32,000 nucleotides of DNA from Methanothermobacter marburgensis str. Marburg (GCF_000145295.1 NC_014408.1:1260001-1292000); one strand, 5' to 3'. Counted from the stretch's first letter, positions 1 through 7,636 are shown. Translations and numbers: made by a program. The notes: a model not told the origin generated them from the letters alone.

Positions 1-171
1 CCATTTCGCGATGTTGCTGTACTTGGATACGCCGTTAACAGCTTCCTTGCCCTCTTTAACCTCATACCAATCGCCGTACTTGATGGTGCCAAGGTTTTCA
101 GATGGAATCCCCTCATATGGCTCATTGCAGCCGCATCGGCATTTGCACTCACATTCAACAGCATGTTCTAA
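1..171 (+). CDS. Peptidase M50 / site-2-protease-like zinc metalloprotease, C-terminal fragment (5' end outside window)
   Basis: Frame +1 is open from base 1 to TAA 169-171 and reads ...LGYAVNSFLALFNLIPIAVLDGAKVFRWNPLIWLIAAASAFALTFNSMF. The FNLIPxxxLDG(A/G)K motif followed by a hydrophobic helix is the conserved C-terminal signature of M50 proteases. It is absent from the supplied ORF track because it has no start codon in the window. Confidence 0.7.
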   Translation, partial: PFRDVAVLGYAVNSFLALFNLIPIAVLDGAKVFRWNPLIWLIAAASAFALTFNSMF

Positions 172-1368
172 GTGATCGAGATGTTCCGGGATATTCCTGT
201 TAAATATGTTGGATGCACCCACCGGGCCATGAAGCCCTCAGAGACACTCAGGGCCTTCAGGGAAAAACTCAGGGCCATAGGTGTCACAAGGATAACCGAG
301 ATAACACACCTTGATCGTATAGGCATACCTGTATTCTCAGCCATAAGGCCGACAGCGGAGGAGGGTGCTGTTAGCATATACGCAGGTAAGGGCGCCACCA
401 GAAAACAGGCAAGGGCCTCTGCAATGATGGAGGCCTTTGAAAGGTACTCTGCCGAGAGAAGTCCCCTGGACGAAACACTGAGGGCCCATCCATCCGAGAT
501 GGATAAACGCCTGGACCCTGAAGCACTTATTCTTCCACCAAACGCTGATACAGACTCTGAGGTTGAGTGGATAATTGCAGAGGATATAAAAAGTCAGGAC
601 AGGATTCACGTACCTGCAAATGCGGTTTTTCACCCTTACAATCCCCCTGAGGGATGTGTGAGTCTCTTCAGGTCCAACACCAATGGCCTTGCATCAGGTA
701 ACGTCCTGGAGGAGGCCATATTCCACGGCCTCATGGAGGTGATAGAGAGGGACGCCTGGAGCCTCTTTGAGGCAAGGAGGGGTCCCCGAATAGAAATTGA
801 TTGTTCGGGGACAGATAACAGGATAATAACGTGTCTACTTGAAAGGTTCCAGAGGGCAGGGGTTGAGATAACACTGGTGGATCTCACCGCTGACACTGGC
901 GTTGCAACGGTTGCTGCAGTTGCAGATGATGTTGTGCTCAGGGACCCTGCACTCCTCACCATGGGCGTGGGGACCCACCTTGACCCTGAAATTGCAGTTA
1001 TAAGGGCCCTCACAGAGGTTGCCCAGAGCCGGGCCACCCAGATACACGGCACCAGGGAGGACACAGTAAGGGCGGAGTTCATGAGGAGGGCCGGGTATGA
1101 GAGGATGAAGAGGCTAAACAGGCACTGGTTCTCTGAGCCCGATAATACCATTGCACTTGAGGATATGGATGACCTCTCAACAAGGTCATTCCAGAGGGAC
1201 CTTGAGATTACCCTGGATAAACTGGAGAGGGCGGGCCTGAAGCAGACACTCTATGTGGATCTAACCCGTGATGTTGGTGTTCCCGTTGTAAGGGTCATTG
1301 TACCGGGACTTGAGGTTTTCTCTGTTGACCCTGAAAGGGTGGGGGGACGCATAAGGTCCTCCAGGTGA
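172..1368 (+). CDS. ycaO: YcaO-family ATP-dependent enzyme, methanogen type (McrA thioglycine-forming thioamidation enzyme; methanogenesis marker 1 type)
   Basis: 398-aa ORF starting at GTG 172, or at ATG 181 which is preceded by GTGATC matching the anti-SD. Hallmark YcaO stretches are present: [58 protein letters not shown]. It is immediately followed by tfuA. Confidence 0.9.
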
Positions 1369-1426
1369 ATATCATAAGCCCACACAGATGAAATGATTAA
1401 GTGACCCTACGCACTAGATAATCCAT

Positions 1427-2110
1427 ATGCACAGCAGAAAGATCATAATATTTACAGGACCATCACTTTCCCACAGTGATGCATCAGATATCCTAAGGGC
1501 AGATTACAGACCCCCTGTAAGGCGGGGTGACGTCCATGAGGCCCTCTCTGATAAGCCAGACATAATAGGGATAATTGACGGTGTATTTCATCAGAGTCCG
1601 GCAGTGGGGCACCGTGAAATCATTGAGGCCCTCAGGATGGGCGTTACCGTTGTTGGAGGGGCCAGTATGGGGGCGCTAAGGGCCTCTGAACTCTATGACT
1701 TGGGGATGGTGGGAGTCGGCCGTATATTCAGGGCCTACCTGAATGGTGATCTGGAATCTGATGATGATGTTGCAGTTGCCTTTAACCCTGAAACCCTCGA
1801 GGCCCTCTCTGATTCCCTTGTGAGCATTCATTTTAACTTTGAAAGGGCCCTTGAAAGTGGCATCATCGGTGAAGATGACTTCAGAGAACTCATGAAAATC
1901 GCTAAGAATCTATTTTATCCCCTCAGGAACTACCAGAGAATTCTGCATGACGCAGAAATACCTGAAAACAGAAAGGCATCCCTCATGTCATTCCTTGAAT
2001 CTGAAGGTAGGGATATAAAAAGGGAGGACGCAATTGAGGTTATAAAATACATTAAGGGACTGCTAAGCTCTGATGATCAGGATCATGGATGTGAAACTCA
2101 TGGATCTTGA
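1427..2110 (+). CDS. tfuA: TfuA-like protein (YcaO partner in peptide thioamidation)
   Basis: 227-aa ORF. N-terminus IIIFTGPSLSHSDA...ADYRPPVRRGDV and GIIDGVFHQSPAVGHREI...GGASMGALRA match the TfuA family as I remember it. It lies 58 nt downstream of ycaO on the same strand. Confidence 0.85.
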   Translation: MHSRKIIIFTGPSLSHSDASDILRADYRPPVRRGDVHEALSDKPDIIGIIDGVFHQSPAVGHREIIEALRMGVTVVGGASMGALRASELYDLGMVGVGRIFRAYLNGDLESDDDVAVAFNPETLEALSDSLVSIHFNFERALESGIIGEDDFRELMKIAKNLFYPLRNYQRILHDAEIPENRKASLMSFLESEGRDIKREDAIEVIKYIKGLLSSDDQDHGCETHGS

Positions 2111-3185
2111 ATCAAAGATAAAAAAGGTGAAGGATGCCCTTAAAGGCAGGAAGGTTGCTGTCGGATTCTCATGTGGGGCTGATAGCACAGCACTTCTTGA
2201 TATTGCAGGGGATTCCGCCGATGAGGTTGCTGCATTCACAGTTGACACAGGTTTTATGCCCCCAGGATTCATAGAAAATGCCTCATCAATTGCCGGATCC
2301 CTCGGGGTGGAGCACTTTATAATAAACAGACCGCTCCTTGAAAACCAGGAGTTTGTGAGTAACACCCCGGAGAGGTGCCTTGTATGTAAGAACATCATAT
2401 ACAGTTCAATACTCTCTGAGGCCAGAAAAAGGGGTTTTGAGGCTGTCCTTGATGGCACAACCGCAAGTGACATGTTCGAAGACCGGCCTGGAACCCTGGT
2501 TAACCATCTGCTGGGTATAGAGACCCCCCTCCTTGATGCGGGGATTACGCGGAGTGACGTCCTTGAATATCTCAAAAAGAGGAACCTTGAATACTCGGAG
2601 AACACCACATGCCTTGCAACAAGGATAAAGGATCAGGAGATAACGCCTGAACGGATAAACAGGGTCTCATATGCTGAAACTCTCGTTAGGGGACTTTACG
2701 GTGAGGGCATCGTGAGGGTCAGGCATGAGGGGGACTCTGCGATAATAGAGGTTGATGAACCTGAGAGGCTTCTCAATGCAGCAAATCTGAGGCATATAGA
2801 GAATGAGTTGAGGGCTGTCGGGTTTAAGAGGGTGCTCCTGGATCTCACAGGCTACAGGGAGGGTAAGAAGGACATTGTACTCTACAGGCCCTGCAGGGAT
2901 GCTGAATCAAGGATAATGTTCGAGGTTAAGCTGCCCTACCACATCGATATAAAAGAAACCTGTGAAAAGCTGGAGGAGAGGAAGCCCCGATGCTCAGAGA
3001 AGATGGGTGTCGTCATGGTTGAGGTGGGTGAAAGTAACGTGACCATATTCAGGAACGGGAAGATAGTGGCAAGAAGGGTAGTGGACAGGGAAGACGCAGA
3101 GGAGGTGCTCCTTGAGGTGCTGCCACACATCATAAGGGCGCATGAGGACATGGAGTCACAGAATCACTCTCAATCAGAAGCATGA
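2100..3185 (+). CDS. PP-loop ATP pyrophosphatase, LarE/TIGR00268-like sulfur-transferase homologue with an extra ~105-aa C-terminal domain
   Basis: PP-loop VAVGFSCGADS. Family-typical PERCLVCK, LDGTTASDMFEDRPG, TTCLATR, VRVRHEGDSAIIEV and LLDLTGYREG. Possible starts are ATG 2073, 2085 and 2100. I prefer 2100 because it leaves the usual ~16 aa before KVAVGFS, and all three overlap the tfuA stop (TGA 2108-2110). Confidence 0.8.
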   Translation: MDLESKIKKVKDALKGRKVAVGFSCGADSTALLDIAGDSADEVAAFTVDTGFMPPGFIENASSIAGSLGVEHFIINRPLLENQEFVSNTPERCLVCKNIIYSSILSEARKRGFEAVLDGTTASDMFEDRPGTLVNHLLGIETPLLDAGITRSDVLEYLKKRNLEYSENTTCLATRIKDQEITPERINRVSYAETLVRGLYGEGIVRVRHEGDSAIIEVDEPERLLNAANLRHIENELRAVGFKRVLLDLTGYREGKKDIVLYRPCRDAESRIMFEVKLPYHIDIKETCEKLEERKPRCSEKMGVVMVEVGESNVTIFRNGKIVARRVVDREDAEEVLLEVLPHIIRAHEDMESQNHSQSEA

Positions 3186-3300: not shown

Positions 3301-3669
3301 TCACAGGGCCCTCTGGACGTTCTCATTAACCCTCCTTCTGAAGGCGGTGATCTTCTGAAGGAGACCCCTTGAATCATCACCCCTTAAAACAAGTCCAGAG
3401 GGGGTGCTGAACTCAATACCATCGGCACTTATCCCATTGAAAATTATCTCAACCTCACTGGAGTCATCAGGGAGGTCATTGGTCCTCACCGTGTAATCAA
3501 GCAGTAGCTCATCATGGGGGAGTACCTCAGAGATGGCCCTCTTCAGTGTCATCTCAAGTACATCCAGCAGTGTCTCAATAACCGGCAGATCATACCACCA
3601 GCAGTAGCCAAGTAGCATCTTGATCTCGATGTCCCTTATTGAGACCTCACCATGGTTCTTAGCCGCCAC
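3301..3669 (-). CDS. hypothetical protein, no family recognised
   Basis: 122-aa ORF (GTG 3669, alternative ATG 3618), co-directional with and 39 nt downstream of the CBS gene. The composition is normal and not antisense-shadow-like. I recognise no motif. Confidence 0.5.
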   Translation of the reverse strand: MAAKNHGEVSIRDIEIKMLLGYCWWYDLPVIETLLDVLEMTLKRAISEVLPHDELLLDYTVRTNDLPDDSSEVEIIFNGISADGIEFSTPSGLVLRGDDSRGLLQKITAFRRRVNENVQRAL

Positions 3670-3708: not shown

Positions 3709-4563
3709 TCACTCATTTGAATCAATCAGAGCATTTATAAGGTCATTGGCCCTTGCAAGCCCTGTGAGGTTTCCCTCATAGTCTATGATGGGTATCTGTT
3801 CAATGTTCCTCCTCTTCATCTTCCTTGCGCAGGAGGTGACCGTGGTTGAGGTGGTTGCGGTGACTATGTCTGTGGTTGCAACGTCCCTGACCTCCTTGTC
3901 AGGGAATTTGAGCTGGTTTTTTATAACGTAGAGTACGTTTTTGCTGTCCCAGGACCACCTGTCACCCTCTGTACCCACAGATGTATTATGAACGGTACTT
4001 TCAGAGACAACCTCGCTTTCATTTATGAAGTCTGTCTCTGTGAGAACCCCTGAGAGTTCACCGCTGTTGTTGAGGGCCAGGAGGACCTTCAGTCCGAAGT
4101 ACCTCATTATCTCAAATGCCACACTGAGGGGTGTTCTATCCCATGTTGTGGGGATGTTCCTTGTCATGTAATTCTCCACTGGTTCATCGATTTCCATTTC
4201 TGCAATTGCACCTGCAACCAGGTCATAGCTTGTCACTATACCCACAAGCCTGTCCTGGTCAACAACAGGGACCCTCCGGATGTTTCTCTCAAGCATCCTC
4301 TCTGCAGCCACCCTGACATCGTCGTCCGGGGCGACTGTGACTGGATTCCTCGTCATTATCAGCGCTATCTGCTCCTCATCCGGATTCTCAACAAGGTCTG
4401 ATCTTGTTATTATCCCCACAAGTTCCTCTGTTCCCTTTTTAACAACTGGAAGCCCTGATACATTCTCTTTTCTCATGAGTTCAAGGGCTGTTGCCCTGTT
4501 TCCTGGAACAGTTACATAGTGTATTTTCTCTGACATTATCTCCTTTACAAGCATGACCAACAC
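3709..4563 (-). CDS. CBS-domain protein (four CBS motifs, two Bateman modules)
   Basis: Four repeated CBS-type units, each ending in h-G-h-h-T/S-x-x-D-h: [44 protein letters not shown]. There is no catalytic domain. Confidence 0.85.
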
Positions 4564-6298: not shown

Positions 6299-7636
6299 TC
6301 AGAATTTCCTGATGTTGTTTGTTTCTGATTTCTCAGAGACCTTGTTGTAGTAGTCGGCCTTAACCGTTCCCCGTGAGTACCTGTAGTAGGTCTTTAGTGT
6401 GACCGTCGCGCCCGGGTTCAGTGTGCCTGTGTACACCTGTTTATAGTTCTTTGTTGAATAGCTGCCATACCACACCCTTGTGTAGAAGTTTCTGGCTGCA
6501 GCTGTCCCCTGGTTCTTAACGTATATGTAGAGTGTGCTTCCAGATTTTCTTGTTCCTGTGACCACAAGGTCGGGTTTTGGGTTTCCAACTGTGATTGTCT
6601 TCTTCTTAACTGAGATTAAGCCGTTGCTATCTGTCGCGGTCAGTGAAACTGTGTAGTAGCCATCCCTTGCATAGGTGTGGGTGACCTCTTCACATGCTGC
6701 TGTTGAGCCGTCACCGAAGTTCCATTTGAGTGTTATTGTGTCGTTATCAGGGTCATATGCAGTTGACCTGAAGGTGAATGCCCTGAGTGATGTTGAACCG
6801 CAGTAGGTGTATGTGAAGTCTGCCACAGGTTTGCTTCCTGTGAAGTTGGGTTTGACCTTGGTTCTGTACCATTCCTCTGCGGCGGCATCATCATAGGGTG
6901 TTGTATTACTGGCCCCCGGGAAGGTGCCGTTCCAGTCCCCAACAAAGGCCGCATATCCATGGTCGTTGCGCCAGATGGTTGTGCCATTGTAAACTGTACT
7001 CTTATTTATAACCTCAAAGTTCTTCTGGTTGGCCTCATAGAAGTTCCTGGAGCCGTTCAGGAAGTCGTATATTATCTCTGCACCATCCCATGCTGTGGCA
7101 TAGTAGTTGGCGCCTGAACCTGTGAACATCCTTGAGAAGTGGTAGATGGTCTCTATGGGGTTCTTAACCTCATAATCCTCAACCCATCCGGTTGAGAAGC
7201 ATGCGTGTAGTAATATTACGGGTATTCCTTCCTTGAAGGGCAGGTAAAAGGTCTGTCCATTGACCTGCACCATATCCCCTGCACCCCATATGTAGCCGTC
7301 ACTTGCAACCAGTGAGAATGGTGGGCTGGCATATCCCCCACGGCAGTCATAGTTCCCTGACATGTATCCTCCGTGGCCCGCGTATATCACAGCATCTGCA
7401 CCGTACATGCCCTTGAGTATGTTCTTAACGGTTGCATTTCCCTTGTAGAGTTCAACTACCTGGTAGCCCCTGTTCTTGAGGGTTGTTGCAACCTTCTTTG
7501 CCTCATCATACATGCAGCTGCTATCTGAGAGGCTGTCTGCAACTATGAGTATGTGGGCCTCTGATAGGGGTAATGCAGTGAGTGATAATATTATGAATGC
7601 AGCGAGCATGAGTTTTCCATATCTCATGTCCTTCAC
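6299..7636 (-). CDS. secreted multidomain protein: signal peptide + N-terminal alpha/beta domain with His/Cys dyad-like motifs + PKD domain + CARDB-like domain
   Basis: Signal peptide MKDMRYGKLMLAAFIILSLTALPLSEA. PKD signature WNFGDGS...HTYARDGYYTVSLTATDSNG (aa ~270-350, nt 6587-6829). C-terminal PDLVVT...YIYVKNQGTAAA...LNPGATVT is CARDB-like (nt ~6302-6577). Eight N-x-S/T sequons. Confidence 0.75.
   Translation of the reverse strand: MKDMRYGKLMLAAFIILSLTALPLSEAHILIVADSLSDSSCMYDEAKKVATTLKNRGYQVVELYKGNATVKNILKGMYGADAVIYAGHGGYMSGNYDCRGGYASPPFSLVASDGYIWGAGDMVQVNGQTFYLPFKEGIPVILLHACFSTGWVEDYEVKNPIETIYHFSRMFTGSGANYYATAWDGAEIIYDFLNGSRNFYEANQKNFEVINKSTVYNGTTIWRNDHGYAAFVGDWNGTFPGASNTTPYDDAAAEEWYRTKVKPNFTGSKPVADFTYTYCGSTSLRAFTFRSTAYDPDNDTITLKWNFGDGSTAACEEVTHTYARDGYYTVSLTATDSNGLISVKKKTITVGNPKPDLVVTGTRKSGSTLYIYVKNQGTAAARNFYTRVWYGSYSTKNYKQVYTGTLNPGATVTLKTYYRYSRGTVKADYYNKVSEKSETNNIRKF

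Follow-up and report, generated by a model that had tools for sequence, protein, structure and literature searches.

A long-form LarE homologue with a TBP-like domain linked to the McrA thioamidation genes in Methanobacteriales

We describe a LarE-family PP-loop gene that follows ycaO and tfuA, the genes for McrA-glycine thioamidation, in a 32,000-nucleotide stretch of the Methanothermobacter marburgensis str. Marburg genome (NC_014408.1:1260001-1292000; hereafter the window, with positions counted from its first letter). Positions 1-3185 comprise four same-strand genes arranged head to tail, namely the tail of an M50 peptidase gene, ycaO, tfuA and the larE homologue. The novelty of this LarE protein lies in its added domain, its conserved gene context and, possibly, its role. 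We tentatively propose that the thiocarboxylate donor for TfuA and YcaO is a product of this long-form LarE or is loaded by it, a reading that we regard as possible and place somewhat short of probable.

Linkage of larE to tfuA and ycaO

The ycaO gene (172..1368, +) encodes the McrA-glycine thioamidation protein also known as methanogenesis marker 1. Its GTG at 172 directly abuts the TAA (169-171) that closes M50 reading frame 1, and ATG 181 is an alternative start. The product scored 573.9 bits against TIGR03266 (cut-off 365) and matched Pfam YcaO at 1.8e-96. After a spacer of 58 nucleotides, tfuA (1427..2110, +) runs from ATG 1427 to the TGA at 2108-2110 and encodes a TfuA-related McrA-glycine thioamidation protein, with 301.3 bits against NF033432 (cut-off 235.2) and a Pfam TfuA match of 5.5e-43. 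Both products lie above their NCBIfam equivalog cut-offs, which bears out the assignment of the pair to the McrA thioglycine machinery in a preliminary description of this DNA.

The third open reading frame (ORF3), the long-form larE, extends from 2100 (or 2073) to 3185 (+) and encodes 361-370 amino acids, as judged from TIGR00268, a structure model and a start alignment. In-frame ATG codons at 2073, 2085 and 2100 give overlaps with tfuA of 38, 26 or 11 nucleotides, and the tfuA stop falls within the larE start region whichever is chosen. ATG 2100 is the likely start, because nearly all homologues begin at the corresponding residue (M-D/E-L-E...) and a Shine-Dalgarno-like box, GGATGTGA, lies 5 nucleotides 5' of it; tfuA and larE would then overlap by 11 nucleotides (ATGGATCTTGA). 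The positions given in the preliminary description for the M50 stop, ycaO, tfuA, the three ORF3 starts and the overlap were all confirmed in the sequence. A scan of the intergenic regions from ycaO to larE identified neither a T-run of at least 5 nor a TATA-like box between the genes, which is compatible with a single transcript and is no proof of one.

We examined the conservation of this arrangement in a scan that took one genome per species, with the best 80 of 208 relatives examined, all 80 of them Methanobacteriales. Upstream DNA was sufficient for this analysis in 75 loci, and all 75 had tfuA immediately 5' of larE in the same orientation; they span Methanothermobacter, Methanobacterium, termite-gut lineages and some Methanobrevibacter. 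The linkage thus goes beyond chance in one genome. The preliminary description had offered as its alternative that an ordinary nickel-pincer LarE sits here by chance; placement by chance in a single genome does not fit this order-wide conservation, and the same alternative in the form of inherited, neutral synteny is weighed below, as is another nickel-pincer reading.

M50-ycaO preceded tfuA in 18 of the 75 loci. In the other 57 ycaO was not adjacent, and most of these had an HD-domain gene upstream of tfuA. Individual look-ups agreed with the scan and showed that the spacing before larE varied: M50-ycaO-tfuA-larE was found with an 8-nucleotide gap in an M. tenebrarum-like genome and with a 4-nucleotide overlap in a Methanobrevibacter, and HD-tfuA-larE with a 262-nucleotide gap in M. 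paludis and a 47-nucleotide overlap in Methanosphaera. Methanothermus fervidus (L096:8215-10963) carries M50-ycaO-larE with an 11-nucleotide overlap of ycaO and larE, and tfuA was not found in its 21-kb larE locus, the locus being all that was covered. Together with the 57 ycaO-remote loci, this locus demonstrates that larE keeps tfuA without ycaO and keeps ycaO without tfuA. We take M50-ycaO-tfuA-larE to be an ancestral Methanobacteriales unit, with larE as its last gene.

The M50 gene stood ahead of ycaO in every locus with an adjacent ycaO, that of M. fervidus included. In the window it is represented by its 3' end (1..171, +; 56 codons), a small gene for a membrane metalloprotease of this family whose C-terminus is 64% identical to that of the Peptidase_M50 gene upstream of ycaO in locus L003. 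A gene of this kind, of about 190-210 amino acids, abuts ycaO in the window (1-171) and at L003:5578-6159, L097:7507-8148 and L096:8215-8802, and the protease could belong to the unit as a fourth member. In the other arrangement an HDIG-domain gene of the TIGR00295 family precedes tfuA (L001:6191-7739, L011:2212-3365, L098:8898-10047). It overlaps tfuA by 4 nucleotides in L011, follows the cofE and TFIIE-alpha genes, and forms a conserved HD-tfuA-larE trio.

Catalytic site and C-terminal domain of the long-form LarE

Against the LarE model TIGR00268 the protein scored 183.6 bits (cut-off 150) over residues 17-265, placing it above the family cut-off and in line with the LarE-type identity suggested earlier. 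Its closest relative, from a Methanothermobacter metagenome-assembled genome, is 90% identical. The best sequence match in the PDB was MmLarE, the Methanococcus maripaludis enzyme (8cnz, E 8e-30), with Lactiplantibacillus plantarum LarE also among the best. An AlphaFold model built from 77 sequences (pLDDT 90, pTM 0.87) superposed in Foldseek on the solved [4Fe-4S] MmLarE structures 8cnz and 8cp4 with TM-scores of 0.89-0.90 and root mean square deviations (rmsd) of 2.0-2.5 Å, and on L. plantarum LarE entries with TM-scores of 0.79-0.89.

Conservation was scored over 166 aligned homologues, 164 of which covered the PP-loop site. Within the ATP-binding PP-loop SCGADS (residues 33-38; 2169..2186, +), S33, G35, D37 and S38 were present in 164/164. 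The CxxC pair C102/C105 in PERCLVCK (2376..2387, +) was invariant (166/166) and corresponds to the CXXC-C motif of Thermotoga maritima LarE (TmLarE), where this motif binds the catalytic [4Fe-4S] cluster (PMC9283937). Equally invariant (166/166) were C180, T183 and R184 of the C180-L-A-T183-R184 segment in TTCLATR (2610..2624, +), as aligned to 5udq. C180 (codon 2610-2612), the third cysteine of the predicted cluster triad, is aligned with C176, the cysteine that L. plantarum LarE sacrifices. The counterpart of S180 of that enzyme is T183, and R215-V-R217 (2715..2723, +) is the equivalent of its R212/R214; S180, R212 and R214 bind the P2CMN phosphate (PMC9283937). The SCGADS loop, the CxxC and the third cysteine had all been noted in the preliminary description, and its statement that LarE proteins with three such cysteines carry a [4Fe-4S] cluster without sacrificing a cysteine is correct (PMC9283937).

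We therefore assign the protein as a [4Fe-4S]-type, ATP-dependent PP-loop sulfur insertase of the LarE family, the cluster being predicted from motif and fold. It has in common with the [4Fe-4S] LarE proteins (MmLarE, 8CNZ/8CP3/8CP4; TmLarE) the PP-loop and the CxxC...C triad, which in those enzymes holds a three-cysteine [4Fe-4S] cluster with one free iron. With L. plantarum LarE (5UDQ) it shares the fold, the PP-loop and the correspondence C176/S180/R212/R214 to C180/T183/R215/R217; in contrast, that enzyme consumes its single cysteine, has no cluster and has its gene in a larA-E operon that includes larB and larC, whereas ORF3 has the cluster triad and no lar genes nearby. The best matches of MmLarE outside Methanococcales were the Methanobacteriales long forms, which are thus its closest relatives and, judging from these matches, probably its orthologues. 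MmLarE differs from ORF3 in lacking the extra C-terminal domain described below and in its gene context, the Methanococcales gene following bioB and the present one tfuA/ycaO. In the literature that we searched, which did not include the primary MmLarE paper, no assay of MmLarE on P2CMN was found, and its in vivo role is assumed.

Two further observations concern this part of the protein. The PP-loop carries Cys34 (2172-2174) in 1 of 77 sequences, that of the window; all 76 relatives, including the 90%-identical one, have Gly or Ala, and G34C may reflect strain variation or an error of sequencing. Public names of these proteins (P0001, P0285, P0453 and others) are inconsistent and include '7-cyano-7-deazaguanine synthase' (QueC), 'ATP-binding protein', 'PP-loop family protein' and 'sacrificial sulfur transferase LarE'. 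The label 'sacrificial' is wrong for LarE members with the three-cysteine motif.

ORF3 does not match the single-domain LarE architecture of about 240-290 amino acids. It has an extra C-terminal domain of about 90 amino acids that the preliminary description overlooked, and residues ~266-370 gave no Pfam or NCBIfam match. Modelled alone (pLDDT 84), this segment adopted over residues ~280-355 (2910..3137, +) a fold for which the top 42 Foldseek matches in the PDB were all TATA-binding proteins (TBPs), the best with E 3e-3, probability 1.0 and an rmsd of about 2.0 Å over 75 residues, at sequence identities of 13-22%. In the models, then, the C-terminal domain is a single TBP-like half-domain. 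A profile of the domain searched against 1.84 billion cluster representatives gave 62 matches; in about 20 longer, high-scoring ones the domain stood at the C-terminus of proteins of ~320-360 amino acids. Long forms (320-370 amino acids) were found in Methanobacteriales only, and forms of 239-289 amino acids in Methanococcales, other archaea and bacteria. Shorter proteins with the domain were considered as a separate architecture and rejected, most of the 14 that were read being fragments of long-form LarE. In some database proteins (P0361, P0359, P0362, P0375) only the C-terminal part of LarE and the TBP-like domain remain; the N-terminus is unrelated, and the PP-loop and the cysteine triad are missing. 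Pseudogenes, errors of gene calling or a degenerate form could each account for them. A second set of three cysteines, C274, C297 and C307 (2892-2894, 2961-2963, 2991-2993), lies in or just before the TBP-like domain. It was present in ~96 of the 166 homologues (Methanothermobacter, Methanobacterium and termite lineages) and missing in all 35 tfuA-less loci and in most tfuA-linked ones of Methanobrevibacter and Methanosphaera, and it may form a second metal or cluster site.

The added domain raises a rival explanation, in which a repurposed LarE acts on another substrate read by the TBP-like domain, as in tRNA thiolation or on a carboxylate cofactor precursor, in a role unrelated both to thioglycine and to the nickel-pincer cofactor. 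In its favour, nucleic acids are common ligands of TBP-like folds, and tRNA is thiolated by related [4Fe-4S] PP-loop enzymes (PMC9283937). The PF06508 superfamily includes archaeal clusters, rich in methanogens, that are still unassigned (PMC13329287), and many of the LarE homologues carry the second cysteine set in the added domain. The relevant tRNA enzymes, TtuA, NcsA and archaeal ThiI, resemble LarE in having an adenylation site beside a three-cysteine cluster that carries sulfide; their substrate is tRNA and they have zinc fingers or THUMP domains, whereas ORF3 has the TBP-like domain instead and scores far below models of the TtuA, NcsA and ThiI type. In addition, the domain is a single half-TBP whose sequence is weakly conserved in Methanobrevibacter and Methanosphaera, the LarE active site is unchanged, and the neighbourhoods gave no hint of tRNA modification, except that one clade has a ThiI gene at a distance of 3 kb. 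We consider a repurposed LarE very unlikely.

Neighbours of larE in other lineages and the absence of lar genes

Beyond tfuA and ycaO, larE was found beside three other kinds of sulfur-related genes. In a large clade of rumen Methanobrevibacter, larE is followed in 28 loci by a gene for a ThiF/MoeB-type E1 adenylyltransferase within at most 13 nucleotides and then by fdhD (for example L133:6004-7775, L111, L113, L127, L143 and L148); tfuA and ycaO were absent from these loci. These thiF-linked genes may be paralogues of the tfuA-linked ones or relocated orthologues in other species; the Methanobrevibacter clusters looked up bear the name 'Methanobrevibacter sp.', with M. millerae in addition for one tfuA-linked cluster. 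In a second clade (P0073 type) larE lies beside the gene for methanogenesis marker 16 in 4 of 6 loci (L100:4087-6494, L099, L102, L103; TIGR03287, 579 bits), in either orientation and with thiI ~3 kb away. Marker 16 is the main coenzyme M synthase (PMC12068725). Both the thiF-linked form (165.8 bits) and the marker-16-linked form (174.4 bits) also passed the TIGR00268 cut-off.

The third partner is bioB. In M. maripaludis C5 (L094:9021-10777) a short larE orthologue follows bioB with a 4-nucleotide overlap, in Methanotorris igneus (L095:9018-10813) it lies 17 nucleotides downstream of bioB, and on a bacterial contig (L012:10001-11754) cysteine synthase, larE and bioB are consecutive; the three bioB products scored 340-369 bits against TIGR00433. 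The M. maripaludis cluster also holds thiF, moaE, fdhD, a TtuA-like gene, a Pfam AbpE_bact gene and sepCysS, and of its genes thiF, moaE and the AbpE_bact gene recur, together with bioB, in M. igneus. A 66-amino-acid gene near the Methanococcus larE was considered as a ThiS-like carrier and rejected, its product being acidic, with a hydrophobic N-terminal segment followed by a cysteine and no GG end. MmLarE, the structural reference for [4Fe-4S] LarE, is encoded by this bioB-linked M. maripaludis gene, or by a strain variant of it at 93% identity. Type II BioB has been the subject of a reported search for a sulfur-supplying helper gene (PMC10813225), and the bioB-linked LarE is a candidate for that helper.

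Thus larE occurs in four independent arrangements beside a sulfur-incorporation gene (tfuA/ycaO, thiF, marker 16 and bioB), which is hard to credit to chance. Because these arrangements often overlap and never involve lar genes, LarE appears tied to sulfur trafficking. They also show that the dedicated McrA partner envisaged in the preliminary description was too strong a claim, since two clades have thiF or marker 16 instead and the Methanococcales orthologue is found with bioB. One locus of a Methanosphaera-type clade (L107:5173-6978) keeps the downstream CBS gene and has genes for a HAD hydrolase, a MATE transporter and a glycoside hydrolase in place of tfuA, a local replacement of the flank upstream of larE.

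We also examined the context of larE for genes of the lar pathway. No larA, larB or larC gene was identified in the whole 32,000-nucleotide window. When larB and larC were searched by tblastn with bacterial LarB and LarC from L007, neither turned up around larE in any of ~165 loci (80 genome loci within 10 kb, 80 metagenome loci within 6 kb, and extras), a count that covers these flanks only and that supplies the neighbourhood comparison proposed in the preliminary description. For comparison, the published adjacency within the LarE cluster is 54% for LarC and 47% for LarB (PMC13329287). PDB searches with bacterial LarB and LarC returned no Methanobacteriales entry, and a literature search found no statement on larB or larC in Methanobacteriales.

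Downstream of larE in the window lie two genes on the opposite strand. A convergent reading frame of 122 amino acids (3301..3669, -) is without a Pfam or NCBIfam match; its position is conserved, with an unannotated gene of 139-152 amino acids there in loci L001, L003 and L097. A gene for a four-CBS-domain protein (3709..4563, -; Pfam CBS 1e-50), which serves as a control for background synteny, was found downstream in nearly all loci that keep tfuA-larE. Among the other genes of the window are those for CBS and Usp proteins, an amidohydrolase, CarAB, a P-type ATPase, CbiJ, MoeA, topoisomerase VI and HemA, and the gene order is that of MTH996-1012 of M. thermautotrophicus (PMC3087415). A gene for a 445-amino-acid protein with PKD and CARDB domains (6299-7636, -) stands between the amidohydrolase gene and carB, a position that is empty in the relatives' gene tables examined (L001, L003, L097).

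A possible role in sulfur delivery to thioamidation

TfuA-type thioamidation uses a thiocarboxylated ThiS carrier that is hydrolysed by TfuA (PMC13063428), and in other methanogens ycaO-tfuA lie near thiF, moaD and moeB (PMC5589413). In the known route ThiS-COSH is made by a ThiF-type E1 and a sulfur donor, with no PP-loop or [4Fe-4S] enzyme assigned. The present ycaO and tfuA are equivalogs of the genes in that route, and a thiocarboxylate is the type of product that LarE makes; beyond this we only infer a place for LarE in it. The triangle of tfuA/ycaO, thiF and larE suggests synthesis or loading of the thiocarboxylate donor as the task of the long-form LarE. LarE chemistry converts a carboxylate to an adenylate and then to a thiocarboxylate, using cluster-bound sulfide (PMC9283937), and in the proposed mechanism this chemistry would be used inside a sulfide-trafficking route that feeds thioamidation. 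LarE would adenylate a carboxylate with ATP, and sulfide held on the free iron of the cluster would be transferred to give the thiocarboxylate donor, most plausibly a carrier of the ThiS/SAMP type that is made or loaded by LarE. TfuA would then hydrolyse the carrier thiocarboxylate and pass the sulfide to YcaO, and the TBP-like domain may be a docking module for a protein partner. McrA is probably not the only protein served, since in other lineages this enzyme is coupled to thiF, marker 16 or bioB. A literature search identified no paper linking a LarE-type protein to ycaO or tfuA; apparent co-mentions of LarE and thioglycine were traced to the author name 'Laremore'.

Several observations weigh against this proposal. 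The P2CMN phosphate-binding residues of LarE are kept as T183, R215 (R/K) and R217 in 166/166 homologues, which favours an ordinary small-molecule substrate. Among 70 evaluable metagenome loci of the divergent clades, tfuA is upstream in 38 and larE stands away from tfuA in the other 32; these 32 are not randomly distributed, the thiF-linked and marker-16-linked clades being among them. A Methanocrinis locus holds the only short-form LarE that was found in another methanogen order, and it has no tfuA or ycaO nearby. The reported ycaO-tfuA neighbours in other methanogens are thiF, sufS, moaD, moaE and moeB, with no PP-loop enzyme (PMC5589413). This cross-order view rests on that survey, the one Methanocrinis locus and the two Methanococcales loci, and the best 120 TfuA homologues listed were all from Methanobacteriales. 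The tight overlap in the window is itself unusual, since the tfuA-larE gap had a median of 71 nucleotides, reached 262 nucleotides in M. paludis, and gave way to an overlap in only 2 of 53 loci with a larE start that could be assigned by script. Finally, the 80 genome loci examined were the top-scoring ones among 208 and are weighted towards Methanobacterium-like genomes, and the convergent CBS and Usp genes were conserved about as well as tfuA. As these genes cannot share the operon and are conserved nevertheless, background synteny in Methanobacteriales is high, and the adjacency of tfuA and larE in Methanobacteriaceae may be inherited synteny.

Inherited and functionally neutral synteny of an ordinary nickel-pincer LarE is accordingly a rival explanation for the position of the gene. 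Synteny extends over the entire region throughout the order and takes in the convergent CBS, Usp, amidohydrolase and carAB genes that cannot share the operon, tfuA-larE gaps are often 50-260 nucleotides, and one or two ancient rearrangements could have yielded the ycaO-adjacent and HD-adjacent forms, which may reflect no more events than that. Neutral synteny is, however, difficult to reconcile with a sulfur-incorporation neighbour in four independent arrangements, often overlapping, or with larB and larC never being adjacent. It also fits poorly with tfuA-larE outliving the adjacency of ycaO, and ycaO-larE outliving the loss of tfuA. We consider this explanation rather unlikely.

An ordinary LarE could instead be a client of the sulfur relay: it would make P2TMN towards the nickel-pincer cofactor, and larB and larC would lie at other sites in the genome. 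Its cluster would be loaded with sulfide from a ThiS-type thiocarboxylate, through release by TfuA or synthesis by ThiF, and the donor would dock on the TBP-like domain; larE would therefore travel with tfuA or thiF. There is precedent in the [4Fe-4S] PP-loop enzyme TtuA, which docks a ubiquitin-like thiocarboxylate carrier and takes its sulfur from the TtuB thiocarboxylate. Such a client explains the adjacency to tfuA and to thiF equally well, and it agrees with a protein that lies above the NCBIfam equivalog cut-off and has all LarE catalytic and P2CMN phosphate-binding residues conserved. About 15% of genomes carry larBCE without larA (PMC11796402). In contrast, larB and larC were never nearby in ~165 loci, against a family baseline of ~50%; the ycaO-larE overlap of M. 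fervidus without tfuA is not predicted; and repeated coupling to the sulfur consumers marker 16 and bioB would be odd for a fellow consumer. We judge this explanation unlikely.

The proposal that LarE acts as a supplier to TfuA and YcaO has a broader form, in which the [4Fe-4S] LarE of class I methanogens is a missing sulfide-activating step and not, or not only, a nickel-pincer enzyme. LarE would be a thiocarboxylate synthase for carriers of the ThiS/SAMP type or a direct [4Fe-5S] sulfide donor. It would serve several sulfur insertions, namely those into McrA thioglycine by way of TfuA/YcaO, into coenzyme M by way of marker 16 and into biotin by way of BioB, together with ThiF-dependent carriers. 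We hold this broader form to be doubtful.

In vitro work on thioglycine formation has relied on unphysiological sulfide or on ThiS thiocarboxylate. M. maripaludis is without cysteine desulfurase genes (PMC3087415), and the sulfur donors of coenzyme M synthase are undefined (PMC12068725). A single larE family, repeatedly coupled to the enzymes concerned, is a candidate to fill the sulfur gaps in thioglycine, coenzyme M and biotin synthesis. Were the ordinary nickel-pincer role to hold, the TIGR00268 proteins of these archaea would still never occur in lar operons, and many would still be mis-named QueC in databases. If the broader reading is true, the pathway to which MmLarE, the structural reference for [4Fe-4S] LarE, has been assigned is the wrong one. 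The maturation of MCR, to which the long-form LarE may contribute, is a target for methane mitigation.

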